Part shown: positions 20,128-20,370 of the stretch, one piece after another | How positions within the stretch are numbered: the first letter of the stretch is position 1 | Layout of the letters: the number at the start of each line of letters is the position of its first letter | Origin: Massilicoli timonensis | Lineage (GTDB): Bacteria > Bacillota_I > Bacilli_A > Erysipelotrichales > Erysipelotrichaceae | DNA: 32,000 bases | Direction: 5' to 3' | Assembly: GCF_900199515.1 (NCBI RefSeq) | Contig: NZ_LT963434.1 | Location: forward strand, 1,143,272-1,175,271 | Program-made: the position numbers and the translations under genes | The notes under the pieces: model-generated | The model's database searches: none | Seen by the model: the letters and a program-made list of their open reading frames with translations, nothing else | Told to the model about the DNA's origin: nothing

Positions 20128-20370
20128 TTATGCCTTTAAGAAGATCAGGATCAATGCGATGATCAAGGAATAGATACCGGTCGTTTCCGCCAACGCGATA
20201 CCGAGCACCATGATCGAACGAATCTTGCCGGCTGCTTCCGGATTGCGTCCTACCGCTTCCGCACCTTTACTGGCTGCGATACCCTGTCCGATACCAGGCC
20301 CTAAACCGGCAATCATTGCGATGCCCGCACCTAACAATGCCATACCACTTACGAACTCTGCATTAAACAT
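20128..20370 (-). CDS. atpE: Fo ATP synthase c subunit with Na+-binding signature
   Basis: 80-aa hairpin proteolipid: ...[12 protein letters not shown]...GRNPEA...[25 protein letters not shown]29, E62, T63, T64 and Y67 align at a constant +3 offset with Q32, E65, S66, T67 and Y70 of the Ilyobacter tartaricus Na+ c-ring. I verified the codons on the DNA (E62 = 20185-20187 ttc/gaa). Confidence 0.95.

Follow-up and report, generated by a model that had tools for sequence, protein, structure and literature searches.

Gene content of the locus

In Massilicoli timonensis, a human-gut member of the Erysipelotrichaceae, the 32,000-nucleotide stretch of DNA analysed here (the window) contains a canonical single-copy F1Fo operon with the order upp-atpZ-atpI-atpBEFHAGDC (Table 1). 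All ATP synthase subunits pass their equivalog cutoffs, the atpI-like gene excepted, which is assigned because of its place in the operon. Judging from gene calls on identical metagenome contigs, the atpZ-like gene, which overlaps upp at the 3' end of the latter, probably starts at 21695, and the real start of upp is probably the ATG at 22284. In an alignment to the a subunit of Bacillus PS3 (6N2D), the essential stator arginine of the a subunit is kept, in the motif SLSLRLFGNILAG. The ATG of atpE is preceded at a distance of approximately 9 nt by a ribosome-binding site (AGGAGG), and the gene product scores above cutoff against both PF00137 (68.4 bits, cutoff 24) and TIGR01260 (64.8 bits, cutoff 43.95).

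Table 1. Genes and transcription signals at the atp and decarboxylase loci (positions in the window)
Feature	Position	Strand	Evidence and remarks
atpC, epsilon subunit	14849..15250	(-)	TIGR01216 89 bits
atpD, beta subunit	15243..16655	(-)	exact match to RefSeq WP_102268209.1, Massilicoli timonensis
atpG, gamma subunit	16652..17494	(-)	TIGR01146 271 bits
atpA, alpha subunit	17498..19015	(-)	TIGR00962 825 bits
atpH, delta subunit	19031..19576	(-)	TIGR01145 133 bits
atpF, b subunit	19564..20091	(-)	TIGR01144 88.5 bits, cutoff 65.5
atpE, F-type c subunit, 80 aa	20128..20370	(-)	complete Na+-site signature Q29, L60 (backbone position), E62, T63, T64, Y67
atpB, Fo a subunit, 230 aa	20421..21113	(-)	TIGR01131 125 bits, cutoff 102.6
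atpI-like small membrane protein, 122 aa	21113..21481	(-)	PF03899 weak, E = 7e-4, below cutoff
atpZ-like (PF09527, ATPase_gene1)	21474..21728	(-)	31.1 bits, cutoff 26.6
upp, uracil phosphoribosyltransferase	21664..22293	(-)	first gene of the upp-atp unit
Promoter-like site ahead of upp	22350..22378	(-)	TTGTAT, 17-nt spacer, TGnTATAAT (extended -10); read from sequence
Intrinsic terminator after regulator gene	22425..22456	(-)	11-bp stem, then U run
HTH/Mga/PRD regulator, EIIA-like C-terminus	22517..24502	(-)	RefSeq name BglG family transcription antiterminator
Na+-translocating decarboxylase beta subunit	24538..25692	(-)	TIGR01109 482 bits, cutoff 190.6
Biotin carboxyl carrier subunit	25715..26089	(-)	EAMKM biotinylation motif
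OadG/MmdD-like small membrane subunit	26101..26442	(-)	TIGR01195 46.4 bits, cutoff 36.05; PF04277
MatC_N/CitMHS dicarboxylate carrier, 413 aa	26465..27706	(-)	PF07158 1.3e-36; PF03600 5e-26
Carboxyltransferase, PccB / 12S / MmdA type	27726..29276	(-)	TIGR01117 869 bits (< 998.8 cutoff); 1VRG 8e-211; PF01039
Family III CoA-transferase, dicarboxylate type	29282..30469	(-)	PF02515 430 bits; SUGCT 9BR7 2e-100; YfdE
birA, biotin ligase/repressor	30830..31777	(+)	divergent from cassette

Upstream of this operon lies a six-gene cassette, which is a Na+-pump decarboxylase module composed of a CoA-transferase, a carboxyltransferase, a MatC-like carrier, a gamma subunit, a biotin carrier and a beta subunit. 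On identical contigs, bioY is found beyond birA. The parts of a NaT-DC (OAD / MMD / GCD) are all present, i.e. a beta subunit with Na+-site residues, a biotin carrier, a gamma/delta anchor and a carboxyltransferase. The beta subunit keeps the StOadB Na+-site residues D203, S382, N412 and S419, the first three of which align to D156, S335 and N365. Opposite R304 and N311, which are essential in StOadB, it has N and D; this mismatch may stem from a local misalignment or from the distinction between OAD-type and MMD-type enzymes. The cassette scores below the MmdABCD models (TIGR01117, 869 vs 998.8 bits; MmdC, 128 vs 200 bits; MmdD, 30 vs 150 bits); it is related to methylmalonyl-CoA decarboxylase, with malonate or methylmalonate as its possible substrate.

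The start of the regulator gene lies 35 nt beyond the decarboxylase beta gene; the regulator gene is followed by an intrinsic terminator with a folding energy of -14.5 kcal/mol (z = -5.0; 0/200 shuffles as good), and a promoter-like site stands ahead of upp. Because this terminator and this promoter stand between them, the decarboxylase cassette with its regulator and the upp-atp genes are separate transcription units. A consensus scan gave promoter-like counts at the shuffle expectation and terminator-like counts above it, and flagged no promoter or terminator at the boundary between the cassette and upp-atp; the upp promoter was missed because its -35 hexamer matches at only 3/6 positions. 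Rfam searches of the whole window at gathering thresholds gave no Na+ riboswitch or other RNA leader, and nothing was found in sensitive RNA scans directed at the cassette leader and at the gap between the regulator and upp.

The ion-binding site of the c subunit

A phmmer search against the PDB aligns residues 7-78 of the c subunit of M. timonensis to residues 10-81 of the Ilyobacter tartaricus c subunit (1YCE) with zero gaps. As a result of this gap-free alignment with its constant +3 offset, Q29, E62, T63, T64 and Y67 match Q32, E65, S66, T67 and Y70 of I. tartaricus. E62 is thus the helix-2 carboxylate of an F-type c subunit, Q29 stands at the position where Na+ rings have Gln or Glu, T63 is the Ser/Thr directly after the carboxylate, T64 is the polar Thr/Ser at I. 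tartaricus position 67, and Y67 is the Tyr at position 70. The sequence-only reading had named these five residues and the offset; counting residues in the translated open reading frame and the alignment bear both out, and comparison with PDB entries for Na+ and H+ c subunits confirms that the residues do occupy the ion-site positions. Its description of Bacillus c subunits, with N for the Gln and VEALPI around the carboxylate, also holds, as the PS3 c subunit (1WU0) reads GIGNG and LVEALPI.

The four best PDB matches of the c subunit are all four solved Na+-binding F-type c-rings, each aligned gap-free: Acetobacterium woodii c1 (2e-44), which ranks first because both hairpins of this duplicated protein match, A. 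woodii c2/3 (1e-25), Fusobacterium nucleatum (3e-23) and I. tartaricus (1.5e-22). By contrast, H+ rings rank at least 8 orders of magnitude lower, the best being the chloroplast ring (3e-14), with Bacillus PS3 at 5e-6. These H+ references lack the polar pair after the Glu (chloroplast, Q..EAL..Y; Bacillus PS3, N..EAL..I).

In solved c-rings, Na+ is liganded by Q/E32, the V63 carbonyl, E65, S66 and a water molecule held by T67, while Y70 bonds E65 (PMC3692424). The conserved Na+ motif comprises the helix-1 Gln, the carboxylate and a Ser or Thr right behind it (PMC7793690), and the T67 position is polar in predicted Na+ enzymes, unlike in predicted H+ enzymes (PMC2359735). By homology with the solved rings, E62 would provide the carboxylate of each site in M. 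timonensis and Q29 the contribution of helix 1, while the T63 hydroxyl would take the role of S66 in I. tartaricus and of T63 in A. woodii c2/3. The adjoining c subunit would supply its backbone carbonyl at position 60, T64 would hold the water molecule and Y67 would hydrogen-bond E62. The a subunit would provide the half-channels by which Na+ enters and leaves past its conserved Arg, with rotation of the ring coupled to F1. That T63 is a Na+ ligand in A. woodii c2/3 is presumed here from the match to the PDB sequence.

Based on these data, we suggest that the F1Fo of M. timonensis is Na+-coupled, a reading to which we assign a probability of about 0.8. The proposal of such an enzyme in the sequence-only reading is well supported, at the level of sequence, because the five side-chain positions are filled without gaps relative to the solved Na+ rings, and because the exchange of T for S also occurs in the Na+ ring of A. 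woodii.

The signature is not special to M. timonensis and is lineage-wide. It is present in 57/78 complete c subunits from related loci, in 116/120 of the closest database homologs and in 55 of 71 single-hairpin representatives of clusters at 50% identity; the latter come from a search of 1.84 billion representative proteins, filtered to single hairpins, as fused multi-hairpin c subunits dominated the unfiltered list. A Glu variant of the helix-1 Gln is found in relatives, e.g. in Traorella. The signature is inherited, being found in most related Erysipelotrichaceae and in many Clostridia, and was not acquired with the decarboxylase. Our literature search on Na+ ATP synthases in Erysipelotrichaceae or gut Firmicutes found nothing specific.

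Possible sodium cycling and the direction of operation

The F1Fo would be reversible. In a fermenting anaerobe, its usual mode may be Na+ export at the cost of ATP, and an increase of the Na+ motive force by a primary Na+ pump could let it run as a synthase. The separately transcribed cassette, with its carrier, CoA-transferase and four-subunit biotin decarboxylase, is a primary pump of this kind and, therefore, a circuit with the F1Fo like that of Propionigenium modestum is possible when a dicarboxylate substrate is available. Taken as a whole, we consider it likely that the c-ring of this canonical F1Fo binds Na+ rather than H+, with a Na+ circuit involving the cassette as a possibility.

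The species description portrays M. timonensis as a non-spore-forming, strictly anaerobic sugar fermenter (PMC6796691). This lifestyle, together with the occurrence of the signature in many fermentative relatives without a Na+ pump nearby, favors the idea that the Na+ F1Fo works essentially only as an ATP-driven Na+ exporter, building up a Na+ motive force that would serve Na+-coupled uptake as well as the homeostasis of ions and pH, with the decarboxylase merely sparing ATP. The F1Fo of Clostridium paradoxum is reportedly an export pump of this type. We regard exclusive export as plausible at somewhat less than even odds: nothing about the canonical operon or its full-length epsilon subunit points to a one-way enzyme, genes for a primary Na+ pump lie at a distance of 2.8 kb, and further Na+ pumps, e.g. 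Rnf, may exist elsewhere in the genome. The description also bears on the label "sporulating Bacillota" in the sequence-only reading, for which spoIIE and spoIID are indeed present in the window, while the species itself is described as non-spore-forming.

At the other extreme, cassette and ATP synthase could form a dedicated, co-evolved Na+ cycle, in which much of the ATP derives from decarboxylation and the adjacency of the genes reflects this coupling. Both machines are present and apparently intact, the cassette is self-contained, with carrier and CoA-transferase and with birA/bioY alongside, and P. modestum and F. nucleatum provide precedents. As had been noted before, only upp and the PRD/Mga regulator separate the beta subunit gene from the first atp gene, all on the same strand; this interval measures approximately 2.8 kb, and the distance from the c gene itself is approximately 4.2 kb. 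The order cassette-regulator-upp-atp recurs in one other lineage only (L087), which is diverged at the genus level, with an a subunit that is 65% identical. However, no decarboxylase lies near atp in any of 80 related loci (upstream flank, up to 10 kb), and we therefore reject a conserved linkage of the two; 57 of the 78 complete c subunits at these loci carry the signature all the same. Moreover, the terminator and the promoter split the units, the upp-atp adjacency is ancestral Bacillota gene order, in Proteiniborus the same cassette is located elsewhere under sigma-54 regulators, and the species is described as a sugar fermenter. A dedicated cycle is, thus, unlikely. Of the decarboxylation-driven Na+ cycle proposed from the sequence, what stands is that both machines are encoded; the proximity on which it relied recurs at 0/80 related loci (upstream flank, up to 10 kb) and spans two separate transcription units. 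Such a cycle is possible.

More speculative still is the idea that M. timonensis conserves energy by "decarboxylation phosphorylation", with a P. modestum-like module operating in a human commensal under control of a PTS-type (PRD) regulator. In this scenario, external malonate or methylmalonate (a C3 dicarboxylate) would be imported by the MatC-like carrier and activated by the family III CoA-transferase, the CoA-dependent, biotin-containing Na+ pump would decarboxylate the activated substrate, and the resulting Na+ gradient would be converted to ATP by the adjoining Na+ F1Fo. The pump would then be a variant distinct from the ACP-based malonate decarboxylase of Malonomonas. We found no earlier description of a MatC/CoA-transferase/decarboxylase cassette in the literature, and the six-gene cassette is the more original lead, as it may represent an undescribed CoA-dependent Na+ pump for malonate or methylmalonate.

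Coupling ion, rotor type and known systems

Could the enzyme be physiologically H+-coupled despite its motif? C-rings with the Na+ motif are reportedly still intrinsically H+-selective and use Na+ only because Na+ vastly exceeds H+. At low Na+ and acidic pH, H+ could be carried instead, as by the enzyme of P. modestum; Na+ enzymes move H+ when Na+ is scarce, and mildly acidic conditions can occur in the proximal colon. The name "F-type H+-transporting ATPase subunit c" that some databases give to close c homologues is a default label. By contrast, Na+ is bound by each of the solved rings that have the complete Q/E-E-S/T-T-Y set, the polar pair is missing from H+ rings, and Na+ in the gut is at tens of millimolar, i.e. 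approximately 10^4 to 10^6 times the H+ concentration. We consider H+ coupling improbable.

There is next to no likelihood that the rotor belongs to the N-ATPases, the alternate Na+ F-type enzymes spread by lateral transfer, or to the F/V hybrids of the A. woodii type instead of a plain Na+ F-ATPase: despite weak sub-threshold matches to alternate-F1Fo models and a best PDB match to duplicated A. woodii c1, which arises only since both hairpins match, the gene order is the canonical atpIBEFHAGDC with delta rather than atpDCQRBEFAG without delta, the N-ATPase models of NCBIfam stay far below cutoff (TIGR03322, 38.5 bits vs 130.85; TIGR03306, TIGR03321, TIGR03324 and TIGR03305 likewise), and one 80-aa c gene lies between atpB and atpF with no duplicated c1.

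If confirmed, Na+ coupling would improve the annotation of ion specificity across an entire clade of gut Erysipelotrichaceae (Massilicoli, Amedibacillus, Longicatena, Holdemanella, Faecalicoccus, Faecalibaculum and Allobaculum), the ATP synthases of which are now labelled generically or as H+-transporting. These fermenters would then run a sodium-based membrane economy, with relevance for ionophore sensitivity, Na+-coupled nutrient uptake and energy yields in metabolic models of the gut. The understanding of rotary ATPases would be unaltered because the motif, the mechanism and the decarboxylase-ATP synthase circuit are already established.

Among known systems, the c subunit is closest to A. 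woodii c2/3 (4BEM), with which it shares 67% identity without gaps, the same residue numbering, identical GPGIGQG and AETTGIY segments and a Thr rather than a Ser beside the carboxylate. However, A. woodii has an additional duplicated c1, which lacks one carboxylate, and, thus, a hybrid ring, while the M. timonensis operon has a single c gene. In A. woodii, the Na+ gradient is made by Rnf and not by a decarboxylase. The c subunits of I. tartaricus and P. modestum (1YCE, 2WGM) are 64% identical with matched Na+-site residues, except that I. tartaricus has Ser66 where M. timonensis has Thr63; their hosts belong to other phyla. The F. nucleatum c subunit (3ZK1) is likewise 64% identical and gap-free, and in this anaerobe, which lives in the human body, ATP synthesis is coupled to a Na+-pumping decarboxylase (glutaconyl-CoA decarboxylase); its c-ring site has two carboxylates, with E32 in place of the Gln present in M. 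timonensis.

On the side of the pump, the cassette resembles the Na+-pumping malonate decarboxylase (Mad system) of Malonomonas rubra, which unites an OadB-type membrane decarboxylase with a carboxyltransferase, a biotin carrier and a transporter of a C3 dicarboxylate. Mad reportedly acts on an acyl carrier protein (ACP) bearing a special prosthetic group; in the cassette, a family III CoA-transferase and an acyl-CoA carboxyltransferase take the place of the ACP, and the cassette's substrate is a prediction. In P. modestum, methylmalonyl-CoA decarboxylase drives a Na+ F1Fo (PMC8473912). As suggested for M. timonensis, a biotin-dependent Na+-pumping acyl-CoA decarboxylase powers the F1Fo in that organism, but P. 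modestum needs a mutase and an epimerase to convert succinate to methylmalonyl-CoA, and neither gene is part of the M. timonensis cassette. Thus, with P. modestum, I. tartaricus, F. nucleatum and A. woodii as the established paradigms, the M. timonensis enzyme is of a known kind.

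The c subunit and its ion site

An ORF of 80 codons, with AGGAGG as ribosome-binding site ~9 nt on its 5' side, encodes the c subunit of the window; it lies between the genes for the a and b subunits in a complete, canonical atp operon on the minus strand. By its scores against PF00137 (68.4 bits; cutoff 24) and TIGR01260 (64.8 bits; cutoff 43.95), it is F-type. In the a subunit, the essential stator Arg is present within SLSLRLFGNILAG. Profile-model scores ruled out that the F1Fo is an N-ATPase; an F/V hybrid rotor was also ruled out.

The translated ORF has Q29, E62, T63, T64 and Y67 where the sequence-only reading had placed them. 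When the c subunit was searched with phmmer against all PDB chains, the top four matches were the four solved Na+-binding F-type rings, each aligned without gaps. Residues 7-78 pair with I. tartaricus 10-81, which bears out the proposed +3 offset, and residues 4-78 pair with 4-78 of A. woodii c2/3, so that the numbering is identical; GPGIGQG and AETTGIY are common to these two proteins. In a MAFFT alignment of tool-verified c sequences, positions 63 and 64 separate Na+ from H+ rings, and both are polar in the window protein. In the published coordination scheme, the Na+ ligands are Q/E32, the V63 carbonyl, E65, the S66 hydroxyl and a T67-held water, with Y70 bonding E65 (PMC3692424); the window c subunit is consistent with this scheme and also fits the motif definitions of PMC7793690 and PMC2359735. 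The Bacillus pattern cited for comparison, GIGNG with LVEALPI, proved correct on 1WU0. By every criterion that sequence can test, the window c subunit is a member of the Na+-binding F-type c-ring family.

PDB matches of the window c subunit (phmmer), with identity and site residues from the MAFFT alignment (columns at window positions 29, 60, 62, 63, 64 and 67)
Protein	PDB chain or entry	E-value	Identity to window c	Site residues
Window c subunit				Q-L-E-T-T-Y
A. woodii c1	4BEM_J	2e-44		
A. woodii c2/3	4BEM_A	1e-25	67%	Q-V-E-T-T-Y
F. nucleatum	3ZK1	3e-23	64%	E-V-E-S-T-Y
I. tartaricus	1YCE	1.5e-22	64%	Q-V-E-S-T-Y
Chloroplast, best H+ ring (alignment: spinach)	2W5J	3e-14	44%	Q-F-E-A-L-Y
Bacillus PS3, H+	1WU0	5e-6	31%	N-L-E-A-L-I

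Distribution of the signature

In a scan limited to one genome for each species, 80 related atp loci with 78 complete c subunits were recovered. Q-x-ETT-x-x-Y is present in 57 of the 78, including all Holdemanella, Longicatena, Faecalicoccus, Faecalibaculum, Allobaculum and [Eubacterium] hominis loci and many from Tissierellia and Lachnospiraceae; Clostridium sensu stricto proteins have I..EAT..Y and other Erysipelotrichales have partial residue sets. The full set also occurs in 116 of the 120 closest database homologues, and the complete Q/E-E-S/T-T-Y in 55 of the 71 nearest cluster representatives (50% identity) with a single hairpin. On these grounds the signature is genuine and informative, though widespread and inherited, and the window protein is, judged by its residues, of a Na+-binding c-ring type already known. 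As an annotation refinement this is correct, and useful because databases say "ATP synthase F0 subunit C" and, for some close homologues, "H+-transporting"; it would not surprise a specialist.

Ion-site variation within Erysipelotrichales was seen at loci L031, L033, L044, L045, L047, L048, L050, L055, L059 and L068 (c subunit just 3' of locus position 10001 or equivalent). Traorella has the two-carboxylate E..ETT..Y of the F. nucleatum type, Kandleria, Thomasclavelia and others have E..ETV or E..ETA..Y, and Erysipelothrix has Q..ETC..Y, which suggests that Na+/H+ specificity may have been tuned or switched repeatedly within the order. A duplicated c subunit of 167 aa in the Clostridiales MAG CSSed162cmA_32 (L065, ~7999-9069), in which Gln replaces the carboxylate in the matched hairpin (Q-V-Q-T-T-Y), resembles A. 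woodii c1 and hints at a possible F/V-hybrid rotor outside Acetobacterium. The best-scoring representatives from a library of 1.84 billion proteins (P0258-P0265 and others) are very large fusions of 4 to 13 c-subunit hairpins, up to 1042 aa long, calling to mind the 13-hairpin c subunit of Methanopyrus.

The decarboxylase cassette and its surroundings

Features of the window
Feature	Position	Strand	Remark
SpoIIE-domain phosphatase	2294-4123	-	
MreB/Mbl	6138-7139	-	
M23 peptidase	7325-7954	-	might be SpoIIQ-like
SpoIID	7987-8901	-	
337-aa ORF	12342-13355	-	
ATP synthase epsilon	14849-15250	-	equivalog cutoff passed
ATP synthase beta (AtpD)	15243-16655	-	equivalog cutoff passed
ATP synthase gamma	16652-17494	-	equivalog cutoff passed
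ATP synthase alpha	17498-19015	-	equivalog cutoff passed
ATP synthase delta	19031-19576	-	equivalog cutoff passed
ATP synthase b	19564-20091	-	equivalog cutoff passed
ATP synthase c	20128-20370	-	
ATP synthase a	20421-21113	-	equivalog cutoff passed
atpI-like	21113-21481	-	sole operon gene below equivalog cutoff
atpZ-like	21474-21728	-	
upp	21664-22293	-	5' of atp
Promoter-like site	22350-22378		TGnTATAAT
Hairpin and U-run	22425-22456		
HTH/Mga/PRD regulator, EIIA-like end	22517-24502	-	5' of upp
Six-gene cassette	24538-30469	-	
OadB-type beta subunit	24538-25692	-	TIGR01109 482 bits
Biotin carrier	25715-26089	-	EAMKM motif
OadG-like subunit	26101-26442	-	
MatC_N/CitMHS dicarboxylate carrier	26465-27706	-	
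PccB/12S/MmdA-type carboxyltransferase	27726-29276	-	TIGR01117 869 bits, under cutoff 998.8
Family III CoA-transferase	29282-30469	-	closest structures SUGCT and YfdE
Inverted repeat	30761-30789		GTAAACC-N15-GGTTTAC

The neighbouring decarboxylase had been offered as support for a Na+ cycle. Its assignment as a Na+ pump very probably holds, since the beta subunit has the same residues as the Salmonella enzyme at D203, S382, N412 and S419 (PMC7274780); as an argument, its proximity adds little. Cassette genes were found 5' of atp in none of the 80 related loci (upstream flank, up to 10 kb), and upp-atp is the ancestral gene order. After the regulator stop codon comes an 11-bp hairpin with a U-run (-14.5 kcal/mol, z = -5.0; 0/200 shuffles fold as well), a promoter-like site and then a ribosome-binding site precede upp, and upp overlaps the first atp gene; the cassette with its regulator is therefore transcribed separately from upp-atp. 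One other lineage, a second within Erysipelotrichaceae (L087, cassette at 6223-12152; a subunit 65% and AtpA 80% identical to those of the window), has the same gene order, with the block between glyA and upp. Proteiniborus (L089, 4169-10236) has the same six genes at another location under sigma-54 regulators. In our reading, the cassette was inserted into a conserved housekeeping region and does not belong to the atp unit.

The six genes look like a self-contained module that would take up, activate and decarboxylate malonate or methylmalonate with Na+ pumping; no description of it was found in the literature searched. We infer an external C3 dicarboxylate, one of these two, activated by CoA transfer, because the cassette combines a MatC-type carrier, a dicarboxylate CoA-transferase and an acyl-CoA carboxyltransferase with Ile where S. 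coelicolor PccB has D422, and contains no mutase or epimerase. Ile at this position presumably broadens specificity towards the C2/C3 pair. An Anaerotruncus-type contig (L088, 9001-14711) has a partial cassette of related MatC, CoA-transferase, amidase and carboxyltransferase genes amid xanthine-dehydrogenase-like, permease, PucR and AllH genes, a context that would fit an N-heterocycle breakdown cluster yielding malonate.

Beside the cassette, birA and bioY are divergently oriented. The perfect inverted repeat in the birA/cassette intergenic region, ~40-70 nt 5' of birA, resembles a BirA operator; BirA may thus control the supply of biotin and perhaps also the biotin-enzyme cassette. The PTS-type regulator, named "BglG family transcription antiterminator" in RefSeq, begins 35 nt past the decarboxylase beta gene, an unusual pairing of sugar-PTS control with a non-sugar dicarboxylate cassette, and is sometimes split or truncated in strain-level contigs (L084, L085). 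Beyond bioY and past the window end, a segment of the near-identical contigs L081-L086 (~1-3300) differs between strains, with TnpV, AAA_14/DUF4143 and Mrr_N genes in some and unrelated small ORFs plus an isocitrate/isopropylmalate dehydrogenase family (PF00180) gene in others, which suggests an integration hot spot adjoining the cassette.

Host, probable mode of the F1Fo and a possible Na+ cycle

Three window proteins match RefSeq entries of Massilicoli timonensis (Erysipelotrichaceae) exactly: AtpD WP_102268209, the decarboxylase beta subunit WP_102268229 and the regulator WP_102268227. Contigs of six metagenome assemblies with the same beta-subunit protein are 99.5-99.8% identical to the window at the DNA level, and one of the six is labelled human gut. 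The species is described as a human-gut isolate, strictly anaerobic, sugar-fermenting and non-spore-forming, with 53% G+C (PMC6796691), compared with ~45-46% on average in the window. Sporulation/morphogenesis genes nonetheless lie 3' of atp, as in Bacillus. The 337-aa ORF had no significant match in a family search; it has one transmembrane segment, a long low-complexity acidic stretch of DEKD/EKD repeats and a coiled-coil-like C-terminal region.

The F1Fo of the window is most likely a reversible Na+ enzyme. In such enzymes, Na+ occupies sites between neighbouring c subunits, reaches and leaves them via a-subunit half-channels and drives rotation of the ring against F1. The default in a sugar fermenter would probably be ATP hydrolysis generating a Na+ motive force, a mode for which C. 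paradoxum is reportedly a precedent. Some 1-2 Na+ are pumped per CO2, against ~3.3-3.7 required for one ATP, which would limit the yield of each decarboxylation to a fraction of an ATP at most. That a CoA-dependent malonate or methylmalonate Na+ pump feeds a Na+ ATP synthase in this human commensal is a tentative proposal, to which we give about one chance in four. With the cassette substrate present, the decarboxylase pump could cut the ATP cost or reverse the F1Fo, and for decarboxylase-driven reversal of a Na+ F1Fo, P. modestum is the precedent (PMC8473912).
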